Assembly (NCBI GenBank): GCA_964016885.1
Contig: OZ024741.1
Coordinates: 127,596,001-127,660,000, forward strand
Source of the DNA: Eledone cirrhosa
Taxonomy: Eukaryota
DNA: 64,000 nucleotides
Direction: 5' to 3'
The position numbers and the translations under genes are program-made. The notes under the pieces were generated by a model. The model ran no database searches and was not told the origin of the DNA. It was given only the letters and a program-made list of their open reading frames with translations. Shown here one piece after another: positions 3,001 to 37,839 of this stretch (position 1 is its first letter; the number at the start of each line of letters is the position of its first letter).

Positions 3001-6000
3001 ATAATGTGGTAGTGCTGCTTTTACTACAAAATACACTCAGCCCACTCTATAATGTGGTAGTGCTGGTTCTACCACAAAATACACCCAGCCCACTCTATAA
3101 TGTGGTAATGCTGGTTCTACCACAAAATACACCCAGCCCACTCTATAATGTGGTAATGCTGGTTCTACTACAAAATACACCTAGCCCACTGTATAATGTG
3201 GTAGTGCTGGTTCTACTACAAAATACACCCAGCCCACTCTATAATGTGGTAGTGCTGGTTCTACTACAAAATACACCTAGCCCACTCTATAATGTGGTAG
3301 TGCCGGTTCTACTACAAAATACACTCAGCCCACTCTATAATGTGGTAGTGTTGGTTCTACGACAAAATACACTCAGCCCACTCTATAATGTGGTAATGCT
3401 GGTTCTACTACAAAATACACCCAGCCCACTCTGTAATGTGGTAATGCTGGTTCAACTACAAAATACACCCAGCCCACTCCGTAATGTAGTAATGCTGGTT
3501 CTACTACAAAATACACTCAGCCCACTCTATAATGTGGTAGTGTTGGTTCTACTACAAAATACACCCAGCCCACTCTATAATGTGGTAGTGCTGGTTCTAC
3601 TACAAAATACACTCAGCCCACTCTAAAATGTGGTAATGCTGGTTCTACTACAAAATACACCCAGACCACTACAATGTGGTAATGCTGGTTCTACCACAAT
3701 ATACACTCAGCCCACTCTATAATGTGGTAGTGCTGGTTCTACCACAAAATACACCCAACCCACTCTATAATGTGGTAGTGCTGGTTCTACTACAAAATAC
3801 ACCCAAATCACTCTATAATGTGGTAGTGCTGGTTCTACTACAAAATACACTCAGCCCACTCTATAATGTGGTAGTGCTAGTTCTACTACAAAATACACCT
3901 AGCACACTCTATAATGTGGTAGTGCCAGTTCTACTACAAAATACACTCAGCCCACTCTATAACGTGGTAGTGCTGATTCTACCACAAAATACACCTAGCC
4001 CACTCTATAATGTGGTAGTGCCGGTTCTACTGCAAAATACACCCAGCCCACTCTATAATGTGGTAGTGCTAGTTCTACTACAAAATACACCTAGCCCACT
4101 CTATAATGTGGTAGTGCCGATTCTACTACAAAATACACTCAGCCCACTCTATAATGTGGTAGTGCTGGTTCTACCACAAAATACACCCAGCCCACTCTAG
4201 AATGTGGTAGTGCTGGTTCTACCACAAAATACACTCAGCCCACTCTATAATGTGGTAGTGCCGGTTCTACAACAAAATACACCCAACCCACTCTATAATG
4301 TGGTAGTGCTGGTTCTACTACAAAATACACCCAGCCCACTCTATAATGTGGTAGTGCTGGTTCTACTACAAAATACACCCAGCCCACTCTGTAATGTGGT
4401 AATGCTGGTTCAACCACAAAATACACTCAGCCCACTCTATAATGTGGTAGAGCTGGTTCTACTACAAAATACACCTAGCCCACTCTATAATGTGGTAGTG
4501 CTGGTTCTACTACAAAATACACTCAGCCCACTCTATAATGTGGTAGTGCTGGTTCTACTACAAAATACACCCAGCCCACTCTATAATGTGGTAATGCTGG
4601 TTCTACTACAAAATACACATAGCCCACTGTATAATGTGGTAGTGCTGGTTCTACCATAAAATACACCCAGCCCACTCTATAATGTGGTAATGCTGGTTCA
4701 CTACAAAATACACCTAGCCCACTCTATAATGTGGTCGTGCTGGTTCTACTACAAAATACACCCAGCCCACTCTATAATGTGGTCGTGCTGGTTCTACTAC
4801 AAAATACACCTAGCCCACTCTATAATGTGGTAGTGCTGATTCTACTACAAAATACATTCAGCCCACTCTATAATGTGGTAATGCTGGTTCTACTACAAAA
4901 TACACTCAGCCCACTCTATAATGTGGTAGTGCTGGTTCTACTACAAAATACACTCAGCCCACTCTATAATGTGATAATGCTGGTTCTACTACAAAATACA
5001 CTCAGCCCACTCTATAATGTGGTAATGCTGGTTCTACTACAAAATACACTCAGCCCACTCTATAATGTGGTAATGCTGGTTCTACTACAAAATACACCCA
5101 GCCCACTCTATAATGTGGTAGTGCTGGTTCTACTACAAAATACTCTCAGCCCACTCTATAATGTGGTAATGCTGGTTCTACCACAAAATACACCCAGACC
5201 ACTATAATGTGGTAATGCTGGTTCTACCACAAAATACACTCAGCCCACTCTATAATGTGGTAGTGCTGTTTCTACCACAAAATACACTTAGCCCACTCTA
5301 TAATGTGGTAGTGCTGGTTCTACCACAAAATACACCCAGCCCACTCTATAATGTGGTAGTGCTGGTTCTACTACAAAATACACTCAGCCCACTCTATAAC
5401 GTGGTAATGCTGTTTCTACCACAAAATACACTTAGCCCACTCTATAATGTGGTAGTGCTGGTTCTAACACAAAATACACCCAGCCCACTCTATAATGTGG
5501 TAGTGCTGGTTCTACTACAAAATACACTCAGCCCACTCTATAATGTGGTAGTGCTGGTTCTACTACAAAATACACCTAGCACACTCTATAATGTGGTAGT
5601 GACGATTCTACTACAAAATACACTCAGCCCACTCTATAATGTGGTAGTGCTGGTTCTACCACAAAATACACCCAGCCCACTCTAGAATGTGGTAGTGCCG
5701 GTTCTACCACAAAATACATTCAGCCCACTCTATAATATAGTGCTGGTTCTACCACAAAATACACTCAGCCCACTCTATAATGTGGTAATGCTGGTTCTAC
5801 TACAAAATACACTCAGCCCACTCTATAATGTGGTAGTGACGATTCTACTACAAAATACACTCAGCCCACTCTATAATGTGATAGTGCTGGTTCTACCACA
5901 AAATACACCCAGCCCACTCTAGAATGTGGTAGTGCCGGTTCTACCACAAAATACACCCAGCCCACTCTATAATGTGGTAATGCTGGTTCTACCACAAAAT

Positions 6001-34587: not shown

Positions 34588-34609
34588 TAATAATAATAAT
34601 AATAATAAT
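34588..34609 (-). repeat. (ATT)7 microsatellite 3' tail of the LINE
   Basis: Plus strand reads (TAA)7T at 34588-34609 directly against the satellite. Short-repeat tails instead of poly(A) are typical of CR1/L2-group LINEs. Confidence 0.92.
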
Positions 34610-34840
34610 GAAATTATTGTGTACAGTGCTCAGGTGCACTACAACTCATCAAAGGTGCATGTATAGTACATAGAATAATGTACAAATGTCAGGAAAATAA
34701 ACAGTGTATGAGTCATGATATAATAACAATAACAATAATGAAATATTGTGCACAGTGCCCAGGTGCACCACAACCCATCAAAAAAGTGCATGTACAGTAC
34801 ATAGGGCAATGCACAAACATCAGTAAAATGAACAGTGCAC
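34588..34840 (-). repeat. Diverged tandem duplication (period ~130 bp) forming most of the LINE 3' UTR
   Basis: 34604-34708 (aataatgaaattattgtgtacagtgctcaggtgcactacaactcatc...aaacagtgta) aligns with 34734-34839 (aataatgaaatattgtgcacagtgcccaggtgcaccacaacccatc...gaacagtgca), with about 15 substitutions and 2 small indels. Confidence 0.9.
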
Positions 34841-34870
34841 ACATGTGTGCATGTGTATGGAAGGGGCACA

Positions 34871-37636
34871 TCAGGTGTAGTTTTGGCGTATTTCGGGAAG
34901 CATGAGTGTCTTAAAGGATGCAGTGTCTCGGCAGCTAACAATTGACGCAGGCAGTTTGTTCCATGTTTCAGCAACTCTGAGCGTGAAAAAATGTCTGCGA
35001 AAGTCATGGGAGCTGTGCTGTTTTCTTATCTTGTAGGCATGTCCACGTGTGTTAGACACATGGAGATCAAAGAGGCGCTCAGGGTTGCAGTTGGCGAGAT
35101 GGTTAAAAACTTTGTGGGTATTCACCAAGTCCACTGCCAGACGTCGGAGCTTCAATGAATCCATGCCCAGGGAAGCAAGGCGTTCAGAGTATGGTAGGTG
35201 TCTGATGGAGGGTATGCGCTTGGTTGCACGTCTCTGAACAGTTTCCAGGAGGTCAATGTTCCGAGCAAGATAGGGGTTCCAGACTGATGATGCGAATTCC
35301 AAGTGTGGTCGCACCATAGCTGTATACAGTTTTAAATAGATGGCTGGAGAGCGGCTAACAAAGGTCTTGCTGAGTGATGCCAAGACACCCTCGGCCTTCT
35401 TGACAATCTTAGAGACATGCTTTGTCCAATGCAAATCGTTGCTGACAGTAATGCCTAGGTCACGTTCACAAGAGGACTTTTTGATGTCAGTGTTGTGGAG
35501 GGAGTATGTGGACGCTGGATTTTTCCTTCCAAAATGCATGGTGGTACACTTGTCCACAGCCAGCTTCAGTTGCCAGTCTGTGATCCATTGCTGCATTGTG
35601 TCCAGGTCTGATTGTAGGAAAGAGTTGTAAATTTCAGGATCAGTCCTTTTGATTTCAAGGTACAGCTTGATGTCATCTGCATATTTTAGTACCGTGGCAT
35701 TCTGTAAGTTGGCATCTATGTCATTAATATATGCCACAAACAAAAGAGGACCAAGAACAGATCCCTGTGGTACACCAGATGACATCTCATATGGTGAAGA
35801 ATGCTGTCCTAGAACCGTGACTACTTCCCTTCGGCTGAGAATGAAGGATTTCAGCCAGTCGAAAAGATCATCCCTCACACCCATTGCAGAGAGTTTTGCC
35901 ATAAGTCTTTTGTGTGGCACAGAATTAAAAGCCTTAGCAAAGTCAAGGTAAACAACATCCACCCATGAGCCGCTGTCAGTGATCCGGGTGATGTCCTCAA
36001 GGAACTCGATAAGCTGATCACAGCAGCTGGAGTTAGGGATAAATCCAAACTGTGATGGCCGGATGAGGCTGTGAGAGCTCCAGAAGTTCCAAAGTGTTTC
36101 TCTGACACAGGATTCCATCAGTTTGGCCATACAGCTAGTAAGACTGACTGGACGATAGTTGACAAGTGACATGCGGTTGCCCTTTTTGAACAGGGGAATG
36201 ACACTGGCAGTTTTCCACTGCTCCGGAGTAGCACCATTGCTGAGACAGTATTGAAAGAAAAAAGAAAGCTGGCGCAAAAGGAAATCCCCGCCACGTTTGA
36301 GAAGCAGGTATGTCACACCATCAAGACCAGGGGAGGCATAGTTGCGCTTATTCTTAAGGTGACGTCGCAACATTGCAGGTGTAAATTCCATAGTTGTTAT
36401 GGAATTTGATGTTAGAGATGGTGGAGATGGTACATTCTGGTTTTCAACAGTAAAACTACTTGCATAGCACTCAGCAATGAGTTCTGCGCATTCCTTGGGA
36501 TCGTCAGTGATCTGGCTTGTGTGGGGATTGCGAAGAGGACCAACTGGAGAGTGAGGTCTCTGCTTTGAATGAACATATTTCCAGAACACCTTACTGTCAG
36601 GATTGGTTGCGATGCACTGTTCAAATTCAAGCACTGCCTTCTTTGTCACTTGCTTGAGATGGTTAGAAGATTTATTCCGCTTTTTTCTGTTGGCATCTGA
36701 TCTATGCAGTTTATATTCCCGTTCAGCGTTCCGACGTTCTTTCCTGGCAAGTCGGACTGCTGAAGTTTCCCAGATTGCACTTTTGGGGTGGTTATTTTTC
36801 CGCTTCCGTGGCACTGATGCTGCACACGCTATCCATATTGAGTCCAGGATGCTCTGGAGTATAGAGTTCACATCTCCAGAGTTATACATCTCATGCCAGT
36901 TTGGGCGCTGTAGCTCAGTGCAGTACAAGTTCCAATCCGCCCTCTTCCAATCAAAGCAAGCAGATTGGAGATGGCTCTGGTTTTTGTTGCTGCCCTCAAG
37001 TGCCAGATTGGCAATGATCATAGCATGATCAGAGTCGCCTAGAGGTTCCTCAGTAGTACAACTGATAACCACTTCAGGAGTAGTGGTGAAGATCAGGTCC
37101 AAAGTGTTGTCACCTCTTGTTGGAGAGGTGACTACTTGTGACCAGTTTGAGTCCAGCACTAGTTCAAGGAAATCGTTTGCACCCTGTGGCCAACGAAAGG
37201 TTTCCCAATCGATCTCAGGATGATTGAAGTCACCTGCAATAAACACATAAGTGGCTGTTTTCTTGGCAGCAACTCTGAGGATATCGCAAAGCTGTGTGTC
37301 CTGATGGTAGTTTGGGGGGCGATAAACAACGCCAAGCAGAAGTGTTGACATGGTCATACGTATGTCACAGAAAAAAACTTCTTCCTGTGATTCGTTCAAA
37401 TCAACGCAAGGAATTACCGAAAAGTTTGAACGAACGTAGACCATCACACCACCACCACGGCGGTTAATGCGGTCCTTGCGGAAAAGGTTGTACCCAGTAA
37501 TGGTGAAAACCCCATCACAGAGTAAGGAATGTGCCCATGTTTCCGTGACTGTGATGAAGTCAGGGTCGATGCTTCTGACGTAGGATTCGAACAGATGTAT
37601 CTTGTTGCATAAACTGCGAGCATTTAAGGACAACAA
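34871..37636 (-). CDS. LINE ORF2 protein: apurinic-like endonuclease + reverse transcriptase (CR1-type)
   Basis: 921 codons without stop or frameshift. APE motifs: LNARS, VTETW, RKDR..GGGV, GVVYRPP, GDFN, TR...TLDLIF, SDH. RT motifs: SPGLDGV, W..A.VIPLFKKG, NYRPVSLTS, QFGF, YLDFAKAF, SGVPQGSVLGPLLF, YADD (35672-35683), DLG. CR1-type C-terminus: VRPHLEFASSVWNP, VQRRAT, YSERL, TRGH, FFTLRVAETWNKLP. The track start is a TTG, not an AUG. The frame is open upstream to 37744 and the first AUG is codon 65 (37444). Confidence 0.96.
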   Translation of the reverse strand: MLSLNARSLCNKIHLFESYVRSIDPDFITVTETWAHSLLCDGVFTITGYNLFRKDRINRRGGGVMVYVRSNFSVIPCVDLNESQEEVFFCDIRMTMSTLLLGVVYRPPNYHQDTQLCDILRVAAKKTATYVFIAGDFNHPEIDWETFRWPQGANDFLELVLDSNWSQVVTSPTRGDNTLDLIFTTTPEVVISCTTEEPLGDSDHAMIIANLALEGSNKNQSHLQSACFDWKRADWNLYCTELQRPNWHEMYNSGDVNSILQSILDSIWIACAASVPRKRKNNHPKSAIWETSAVRLARKERRNAEREYKLHRSDANRKKRNKSSNHLKQVTKKAVLEFEQCIATNPDSKVFWKYVHSKQRPHSPVGPLRNPHTSQITDDPKECAELIAECYASSFTVENQNVPSPPSLTSNSITTMEFTPAMLRRHLKNKRNYASPGLDGVTYLLLKRGGDFLLRQLSFFFQYCLSNGATPEQWKTASVIPLFKKGNRMSLVNYRPVSLTSCMAKLMESCVRETLWNFWSSHSLIRPSQFGFIPNSSCCDQLIEFLEDITRITDSGSWVDVVYLDFAKAFNSVPHKRLMAKLSAMGVRDDLFDWLKSFILSRREVVTVLGQHSSPYEMSSGVPQGSVLGPLLFVAYINDIDANLQNATVLKYADDIKLYLEIKRTDPEIYNSFLQSDLDTMQQWITDWQLKLAVDKCTTMHFGRKNPASTYSLHNTDIKKSSCERDLGITVSNDLHWTKHVSKIVKKAEGVLASLSKTFVSRSPAIYLKLYTAMVRPHLEFASSVWNPYLARNIDLLETVQRRATKRIPSIRHLPYSERLASLGMDSLKLRRLAVDLVNTHKVFNHLANCNPERLFDLHVSNTRGHAYKIRKQHSSHDFRRHFFTLRVAETWNKLPASIVSCRDTASFKTLMLPEIRQNYT

Positions 37637-37692
37637 TTTGTACCCTGCTCGCAGTCTATGATGGTGTGTAGAGGGTGGCAGGTTGTTCTGGT

Positions 37693-37702
37693 TTAGTTTC
37701 CC
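37693..37702 (-). promoter_or_regulatory. Candidate -1 ribosomal frameshift site G_GGA_AAC followed by UAA
   Basis: Minus strand CTG GGA AAC TAA gives an X_XXY_YYZ heptamer (37702-37696) in phase with the putative ORF1. The -1 frame (GGG AAA CTA AAC CAG...) is the ORF2 frame. Confidence 0.55.
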
Positions 37703-37839
37703 AGAGTTGTAGCAGTTTTTACATTGCCAGTTATTGTGGGTAGATCACACTCAGACCAGCTGGTATCTCTCTTCCACGTTTCACCCGCCTTGACAAACCT
37801 CCAGATCTGCCCATCATCACGCAGACTGAAACTTTCATC
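37693..37839 (-). pseudogene. Putative C-terminal remnant of LINE ORF1 (48 codons, cut by the 5' truncation)
   Basis: Frame open from the element's 5' junction: DESFSLRDDGQIWRFVKAGETWKRDTSWSECDLPTITGNVKTATTLGN-stop (TAA 37695-37693). It overlaps the open ORF2 frame by 52 nt. No recognisable domain, and a second frame is also open for 35 codons, so the assignment is positional. Confidence 0.65.

Follow-up and report, generated by a model that had tools for sequence, protein, structure and literature searches.

How ORF2 of a LINE is translated is described as an open and important question in a passage of a 2013 review (PMC3894237). It applies to a CR1-group element in the window, the 64,000-nucleotide stretch of Eledone cirrhosa DNA analyzed here, where ORF2 has no AUG ahead of its endonuclease domain and overlaps ORF1 in the -1 frame. 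CR1-group elements are named as the dominant retrotransposon in most vertebrate species in part of a 2026 survey of the group (PMC13343379). Since ORF1 ends on the slippery heptamer G_GGA_AAC and an AUG-less ORF2 overlaps it in -1, ribosomes likely slip at this site, and -1 ribosomal frameshifting very probably yields an ORF1-ORF2 fusion of about 1,400 amino acids. This reading was put forward in an initial annotation of the window and is supported here; we infer the slip itself from the frames, the missing AUG and the conservation of the site. The features referred to below are as follows.

34589..37839, minus strand: 5'-truncated young CR1-group LINE copy, within a 48-bp satellite array
37693..37839, minus strand: 3' end of ORF1, last 48 codons plus TAA
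37696..37702, minus strand: slippery heptamer G_GGA_AAC, in phase with ORF1
37693..37695, minus strand: ORF1 stop TAA, directly 3' of the heptamer
37679..37681, minus strand: in-frame CUG in an A-rich context, kept in both subfamilies, candidate reinitiation start
37608..37660, minus strand: predicted 15-bp RNA hairpin, 35 nt after the heptamer, spanning the NARS codons
34871..37744, minus strand: ORF2 frame, -1 relative to ORF1, with APE and RT; first ATG at 37444
34589..34870, minus strand: 3' UTR, ending in an (ATT)n tail

The element and its two reading frames

A genome search with positions 37500-37839 (1287 candidates) gave 40 scored matches at 100%. Position 37839 was rejected as the true 5' end because eight other copies continue into ORF1; at least 31 copies on C28 and C18 end 7 nt upstream of it. 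Being young and rich in copies that look intact, the family is a practical test system. A 3' end made of short tandem repeats rather than poly(A) is a trait of the CR1 group, and the (ATT)n tail at about 34613-34589 is of this kind. Within the group, poly-A is unique to Zenon according to a portion of the 2026 survey (PMC13343379).

From 37744 the ORF2 frame stays open as far as a stop codon at 34873-34871; it measures 957 codons between stops, and 941 codons follow the predicted slip. Pfam placed APE at residues 39-240 (PF03372/PF14529) and RT at 523-750 (PF00078), in agreement with the initial description of an APE-RT frame, and found no RNase H family in ORF2 at E values up to 1 and no protease domain in the element. 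In an APE tree of 73 sequences, midpoint-rooted and including no labelled L2 or Jockey references, the element shared its clade with proteins from birds and turtles (FastTree 0.85). Over an alignment of 801 residues, ORF2 had 32% identity with the RT protein of a turtle CR1.

Longer genomic copies fixed the frame of the heptamer as that of ORF1, which runs for 456-457 residues from a Met in seven of eight such copies, the eighth being truncated within ORF1. A second frame ending in TAA at 37733-37731, earlier kept as a candidate for the real ORF1, spans only 41 codons in all eight and was discarded. Full-length ORF1 is rich in Cys at its N-terminus and in Q in its middle part, and its C-terminus is RRM/CTD-like. 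The best Foldseek row for a model of the C-terminal part (pLDDT 78.7) was the L1 ORF1p RRM-CTD at an E value of 1.2e-3, with no row at or below 0.001, and comparison with 2w7a gave a VIA Z of 8.8 (rmsd 2.6, 80 aligned), tied with other RRMs. A Pfam search of ORF1 produced no match, PHD included, while weak PHD/FYVE-type PDB rows were obtained for the N-terminus (E 0.55-3.6). The homologue search for ORF1 returned one protein; the N-terminal Cys/His pattern is conserved with protein P0121, which ends in GN.

At the junction the minus strand reads ACA ACT CTG GGA AAC TAA, placing GGGAAAC at 37702-37696 against the TAA at 37695-37693, as originally reported, so that an in-phase X_XXY_YYZ heptamer lies within the -1 overlap. 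The claim of an AUG-less ORF2 was also borne out: the frame is shut upstream by a TGA, its first in-frame ATG (37444) lies past NARS and TETW, and neither subfamily has an in-frame AUG upstream of LNARS.

Conservation of slippery sites in the family and its clade

The initial annotation judged the heptamer unlikely by chance from its rarity. No strict in-phase heptamer occurs in the family's 454 preceding ORF1 codons, but a lone site could be chance, and it is the conservation tests, rather than single-site rarity, that exclude a chance origin. The main subfamily has 280 junction matches; of the 100 that were listed, 98 carry GGGAAAC and none differs in length. The sister subfamily (APE about 88% identical) keeps both heptamer and stop, with the -1 frame shut only four codons upstream, and has 182 junction matches against 2+1 fused variants. 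The frame-separated junction is the family's master state. Fused copies of 1,381 codons were considered as the active form and rejected, there being three of them against 182.

Heptamer and stop are likewise unchanged in two related organisms, in contigs from all four runs; these contigs differ at the flanking bases (L037 5159 and 5170), not within 5160-5169, and carry upstream deletions of 3+3 nt. In the more distant locus L115 (APE 55% identical), a homologous ORF1 ends CAG GGA AAC TAG with ORF2 in -1; about 15 residues before the heptamer are unrelated, yet the heptamer is kept. The expectation that relatives would retain the site thus holds for both subfamilies, two related organisms and L115, and slippery-type sites extend into the wider clade. 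A degenerate NARS pattern, meant to reveal other families in the genome, gave no match, two divergent protein queries recovered, among the loci read, only the same two subfamilies, and a pattern scan of viral contigs gave 21 hits, none of them confirmed.

For the clade, 82 loci (80 metagenome and two of the element's own family) were collected, and removal of three without an anchor, 21 that were truncated or had an ORF1 under 200 codons, and two redundant ones left 56. Among these 56 non-redundant readable loci ORF2 lies in -1 relative to ORF1 in 44, in +1 in nine and in frame in three; L158, L182 and L188, in the same tree clade, are without a -1 overlap. Damaged copies L115, L126, L141, L145 and L170 were misclassed automatically and stand outside the statistics, the site having been seen on inspection. 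Strict in-phase heptamers were present in 21 of 41 metagenome -1-overlap loci, against 9.1 expected from 1000 synonymous shuffles (maximum 18), and relaxed ones in 36 of 41 (18.2 expected, maximum 27). By phase, in 43 loci, 23 heptamers were in ORF1 phase and three in each of the other two.

In one ORF1 column, picked after looking at the data and covering 34 of 41 loci, the degenerate base before the site equals the next base in 34/34; the expectation is 12.0 even under the constraint of an open -1 frame. Its codons are fixed as Glu GAA (18/18), Lys AAA (8/8) and Asn AAC (29/29; background 41%), while 209 upstream ORF1 columns are neutral (observed/expected 1.02). The 34 sites comprise 11 strict X_XXY_YYZ, 18 G_GAA_AAC and five G_GGG_GAC/A, the last two groups being non-canonical (23 in all). 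The -1 frame closes upstream of the sites at background rate (median 4 codons, 6.5 expected) and is open downstream for 26-149 codons. Nucleotides are thus conserved beyond the needs of the protein both in this lineage and in the clade. The clade statistics support the family's own site by analogy, because the column differs in position from that site and ORF1 homology is weak (HHalign probability 12%, E 0.0024).

RNA context and alternative routes to ORF2

Under the frameshift reading, a minority of ribosomes would slip back one base at G_GGA_AAC and make the ORF1-ORF2 fusion, while most would stop at the TAA and release ORF1 protein alone; this split would determine how far RNA-binding protein outnumbers enzyme, like retroviral gag versus gag-pol. 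Stimulators of slippage usually lie 5-9 nt downstream of the heptamer. None was found at that distance in the family (over +3..+63 the two subfamilies have fold z values of -0.8 and +1.9), where stems starting within 16 nt of the heptamer reach 5 bp only and the sister subfamily does not keep the GC-rich one. The weak pairings named earlier, CCTGC/GCAGG and ACCCT/AGGGT, are present in the window copy, but both are gone from the sister subfamily and so are not conserved. Across 41 relatives there was no common local fold (mean z -0.54), z fell below -1.5 in 8/41 compared with 1-6/41 in control windows, and Rfam had no match in L037 or L103. The 15-bp hairpin, which the initial annotation did not include, is stronger than the pairings it named. 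Its 113-nt region has a z of -3.47, and in the sister subfamily the hairpin is less stable, at -16.7 instead of -29.9 kcal/mol. What stimulates the slip can only be guessed at; slow termination at the stop next to the heptamer and the hairpin further downstream are two candidates.

ORF2 might instead be reached by reinitiation, with ribosomes that stop at the ORF1 TAA restarting at the near-cognate CUG at 37681, 11 nt past the stop, while the hairpin acts as a pause and the heptamer is incidental. The CUG has an A at -3 and persists in both subfamilies, and in L1 and SART1 ORF2 translation depends on that of ORF1, SART1 also needing downstream structure, according to passages in three papers (PMC2881922, PMC3894237, PMC10275272). 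L115, the closest relative, carries an ATG in frame two codons ahead of NARS, and an ATG upstream of NARS occurs in 17 of 42 metagenome -1 loci, within 12 codons in nine of the 17. However, L115 lacks the CUG and retains the heptamer, the ORF1 stop is followed by ACC with no UAAUG stop-start overlap, and reinitiation leaves unexplained both the fixed synonymous codons of the heptamer and the fact that in relatives the -1 frame opens 60-430 nt ahead of the ORF1 stop. We consider it improbable.

A change of frame at the RNA level, whether the polymerase slips on the purine run or splicing gives rise to a separate ORF2 message, is less probable still. Three sister-subfamily genomic copies carry +1 or -2 indels in the upstream A run that fuse the ORFs, so slippage on A runs does take place here at one stage or another, and many relatives have a donor-looking, GTGGTAG-like motif 12 nt downstream of the site. 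Against this, the runs are short (3-4 identical bases at most sites), the sites keep to ORF1 phase and end in AAC, no GTRAG donor occurs from the ORF1 start to the NARS region, and no joint across the junction appears in four contig sets, possibly of RNA. Among the runs listed as carrying the element none is recorded as RNA, which speaks neither for nor against. That the heptamer reflects chance or protein constraint (a Gly-Asn ORF1 end, dual coding), with ORF2 served by an internal promoter or internal entry, is barely credible: although the family's site is off the clade's conserved column and direct evidence on it comes from only two or three independent lineages, the codons GGA and AAC, like the G before them, stay fixed next to residues that have diverged, and no AUG precedes the APE motifs for an internal transcript to use.

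Frameshifting at the heptamer accordingly remains our preferred reading for this family, and we lean slightly towards extending it. In that extension, -1 frameshifting would be the ancestral and usual ORF2 route in much of the CR1 group, making these gag-pol-like LINEs that work with an uncut ORF1-ORF2 fusion as their enzyme; the site would have moved within ORF1, lying at its very end here and 60-430 nt inside it in relatives, with G_GAA_AAC and G_GGG_GAC/A as variants and no nearby RNA structure, which would point to a stimulator not yet described. With no protease domain found, such a fusion would probably stay uncut. If true, ORF2 annotation would change, there being no AUG, as would the design of CR1 assay constructs and views on the possible origin of cis preference. 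With a site of seven bases that is conserved and can be mutated, the question of ORF2 translation becomes a simple reporter test.

Comparison with known systems

Frameshift sites of the G_GGA_AAC class occur in FIV, SRV-1, BWYV and PEG10. With retroviral-type frameshifting the element shares an in-phase X_XXY_YYZ where an RT gene overlaps an RNA-binding gene in -1; it differs in being non-LTR and in the lack of a detectable pseudoknot or hairpin 5-9 nt downstream. On mammalian ribosomes G_GGA_AAC ranks among the most shifty heptamers, according to part of one study (PMC5009743).

The initial annotation held that the well-studied LINEs use reinitiation instead, which is described for L1 and SART1; a review figure legend (PMC5911963) states that a -1 frameshift is required for ORF2 translation in Dictyostelium TRE5-A and TRE3-A. 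Like the present element, these are APE-type non-LTR elements with a -1 frameshift stated for ORF2; they belong to another lineage and another host, and the legend gives no slippery site, conservation or experiment. For CR1, a literature search found no mention of -1 frameshifting. The words "frameshift" and "slippery" do not occur in the available part of the 2026 survey (PMC13343379), nor "frameshift" and "overlap" in that of Metcalfe and Casane (PMC4120745), where type IIC ORF1 of the CR1 group is given as PHD plus transposase-22. The element shares with type IIC LINEs an APE-RT ORF2 and a short-repeat tail, and it may resemble them in its ORF1, whose C-terminal model is nearest the L1 ORF1p RRM-CTD.

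With mammalian L1 and silkworm SART1 it has in common a bicistronic LINE RNA from which ORF2 is made at low level after ORF1. Those elements make a separate ORF2 protein, SART1 via UAAUG, whereas this one has neither such an overlap nor an AUG, and its active enzyme, if frameshifting is correct, would bear ORF1 at its N-terminus.

The ORF1-ORF2 junction of a satellite-embedded LINE

The window is made up of a 48-bp satellite array, inside which lies a single 5′-truncated LINE on the minus strand with APE and RT domains present in its ORF2. All of the features described in the initial annotation (GGGAAAC, an adjacent TAA, and an open -1 frame) are present:

LINE copy: 37839 to ~34589, minus strand, 5′-truncated, ending in an (ATT)n tail
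Slippery heptamer GGGAAAC: 37702-37696, minus strand, read from sequence
ORF1 stop TAA: 37695-37693, minus strand, read from sequence
-1 (ORF2) frame, no stop: 37744 to 34871, minus strand, first ATG at 37444

As had been claimed, the ORF2 frame lacks an ATG ahead of the NARS and TETW endonuclease motifs, its first ATG being located beyond both. The assignment of ORF1 to the heptamer frame was likewise borne out, as seven of eight longer copies encode a 456-457-residue ORF1 that starts with Met and ends in TLGN; the eighth is truncated within ORF1. A second frame, raised as a possible ORF1, was set aside because it spans only 41 codons in all eight copies. The ORF1 C-terminus was modeled with a pLDDT of 78.7, and its best match was the human L1 ORF1p RRM-CTD (E = 1.2e-3, sub-threshold, and tied with other RRMs in a second structural comparison), a resemblance that would be expected of a real ORF1.

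All 40 scored matches to 37500-37839 (among 1287 candidates) were 100% identical, and the family is young and abundant. A second, longer copy (L227), carrying an additional inverted 3′ piece, is found 4.3 kb past the window end in the opposite orientation within the same satellite array. On contig G000:C28, at least 30 copies between 124.7 and 126.35 Mb (L001-L030, L040, L041, L224-L226) share one common 5′ truncation at a spacing of ~30-100 kb, which points toward amplification of the LINE within a large tandem unit. Between two of these copies lies one match to the histone 3′ stem-loop, scoring 36.6 bits against a cut-off of 34.

Conservation of the slippery site

The main subfamily, to which the window copy belongs, yielded 280 junction matches; among the 100 listed, GGGAAAC was found in 98 and a length change in none. 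The sister subfamily, with an APE ~88% identical to that of the main one, keeps both heptamer and stop; 4 codons upstream, the -1 frame is closed in this subfamily. Its junction has 182 exact matches versus 2 and 1 copies in which A-run indels fuse the ORFs. The heptamer plus stop is the master state of the family, not damage. These three copies (L100, L101, and G000:C1:418407266) bear +1 or -2 indels in the A run just upstream of the heptamer, which in L100 and L101 join ORF1 and ORF2 in a single 1,381-codon frame; they have not been amplified, and the indels could be copying or assembly slips.

Conservation of the heptamer in relatives was confirmed. Across four runs covering two related organisms, the contigs vary at bases flanking the heptamer and stop and at none inside, with two upstream deletions of 3 nt each. 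The heptamer is also kept in L115, the nearest metagenome relative among the best 80 of 483 loci (APE 55% identical, adjacent clade in the tree), where the homologous ORF1 end reads CAG GGA AAC TAG with ORF2 in -1. This copy bears a frameshift within ORF1, and an ATG two codons ahead of NARS is a point against the frameshift reading. P0121, the sole homologous ORF1 protein found, ends in GN, the rest of its tail having diverged.

In the wider clade, the best 80 of 483 metagenome loci plus two own copies gave 82 loci, of which 79 were anchored. ORF1 was untruncated and 200 codons or longer in 58, and filtering to below 80% identity left 56; median pairwise APE identity of the set is 35%. ORF2 lies in the -1 frame relative to ORF1 in 44 of the 56, in +1 in 9, and in frame in 3. 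A -1 overlap is present in 41 metagenome loci, again from the best 80 of 483; among these, a strict in-phase heptamer is found in 21 (mean 9.1 and maximum 18 over 1000 synonymous shuffles) and a relaxed one in 36 (mean 18.2, maximum 27). The site occupies one aligned ORF1 column, picked after inspection, in 34 of the 41:

Column sites (n = 34): G_GAA_AAC, 18; A_AAA_AAC, 8; G_GGG_GAC/A, 5; G_GGA_AAC, 2; U_UUA_AAC, 1

The degenerate base preceding the column site equals the next base in 34/34 (9.3 expected, or 12.0 with the -1 frame held open), and its Asn is AAC in 29/29 against a background of 41%. Codon identity across 209 upstream ORF1 columns is at expectation (1.02), indicating that the lineages are effectively saturated; at the three site codons it is 0.70, 0.95, and 1.00 versus 0.24, 0.47, and 0.50. 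Upstream of the sites, stops interrupt the -1 frame as often as background would predict; downstream it stays open for 26-149 codons, which partly follows from how the class was chosen. Eleven of the 34 sites at this column fit the canonical pattern, and for the other 23 we infer probable slipping from covariation. The remaining seven of the 41 loci carry a heptamer at other overlap positions, including U_UUA_AAC directly before the stop in L133, placed as in the window family, and a heptamer ending in G in L148. Since the conserved column lies away from the window family's site and ORF1 homology between the sets is weak, the site appears to have moved or arisen again.

Genome contigs gave U_UUA_AAC_UAG at the ORF1 end in 8 of 29 eukaryote-type loci (6 of the 8 from a single assembly, 4 of the 29 without an anchor), with the -1 frame intact in 5. 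In L199, L201, L202, L204, L205, and L214, a run of 5-7 G follows the stop by ~8 nt; none is present in the window family. These 29 loci (L195-L223) are CR1-type animal sequence within several prokaryote genome assemblies, 17 of them in one, and are likely host contamination.

Most +1 loci sit on a separate tree branch, with an ATG in 8 of 9 (best 80 of 483), and L158, L182, and L188 fall inside the main clade without a -1 overlap. In L158, L178, and L182, ORF1 and ORF2 share a frame, and the only stop between them is one UGA with CUA, CUG, or CUU after it; this context resembles leaky read-through signals. L178 has no ATG before NARS, and the tree places L158 next to L182 as its sister. These loci have possibly switched from frameshifting to read-through.

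RNA downstream of the heptamer

A stimulator at the usual distance downstream was looked for in the window family and its relatives and was not found. Neither of the pairings initially proposed (CCTGC/GCAGG and ACCCT/AGGGT) survives in the sister subfamily. A 15-bp hairpin is predicted 35 nt downstream of the heptamer (z = -3.47); in the sister subfamily its outer 9 pairs are kept, with one A-U, G-U, G-C series, and it falls to -16.7 kcal/mol. Covariation at this one pair only is weak evidence for the hairpin.

In the L116-L184 group of metagenome relatives, Val-Val codons 12-19 nt past the heptamer are mostly GTG GTA (23/34 and 20/34), with a codon identity of 0.55 versus 0.27 expected, close to the top of the upstream range; these codons may contribute to a stimulator, form a protein-binding site, or be under dual-coding constraint. 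In one clade (L134, L135, L146, L153, L169, L171, L176, and L180), A_AAA_AAC is followed by an overlap in which 234-432 nt are double-coded. Strong folding is predicted just downstream of the site in L134, L135, and L169 (z = -2.5 to -5.1), and these folds are the best candidate stimulators among the loci examined.

Proposed mechanism and known systems

The window junction is a real, conserved recoding candidate, and -1 ribosomal frameshifting at G_GGA_AAC very probably yields an ORF1-ORF2 fusion in this family. In a small share of passes, the Gly and Asn tRNAs on GGA AAC would re-pair one base back on GGG AAA, and slipped ribosomes would translate 941 further ORF2 codons to give a fusion of ~1,398 residues (457 + 941). 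Ribosomes that do not slip would terminate, freeing the ORF1 protein. ORF2 could instead arise by non-AUG reinitiation, for which a conserved CUG is available, and this is improbable. A frame change at the RNA level, through slippage or splicing, is harder still to credit, and a chance heptamer is the least plausible reading, with very little probability left to it.

No description of frameshifting in CR1 was found in the literature searched; an earlier remark, for example in subscription journals or in the original CR1, T1/Q, or TRE papers, is possible. The search took in passages of PMC2881922, PMC4120745, PMC1965478, PMC11835228, PMC13343379, PMC5006619, PMC10275272, PMC1925062, PMC4700185, PMC7175516, and PMC3894237. 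The portion searched of PMC5009743 holds a single mention of non-LTR elements, on HeT-A and TART. A -1 frameshift is stated for Dictyostelium TRE5-A and TRE3-A in PMC5911963, so on that account such frameshifting is not new to non-LTR elements. Added here are the branch with an RRM/CTD-type ORF1, the placement of G_GGA_AAC at the end of ORF1, internal sites whose overlaps reach up to ~450 nt, and non-canonical site variants. The window junction departs from a canonical -1 frameshift signal in one feature, the nearby stimulator, and in its mode of action this candidate would be akin to the retroviral gag-pol shift.
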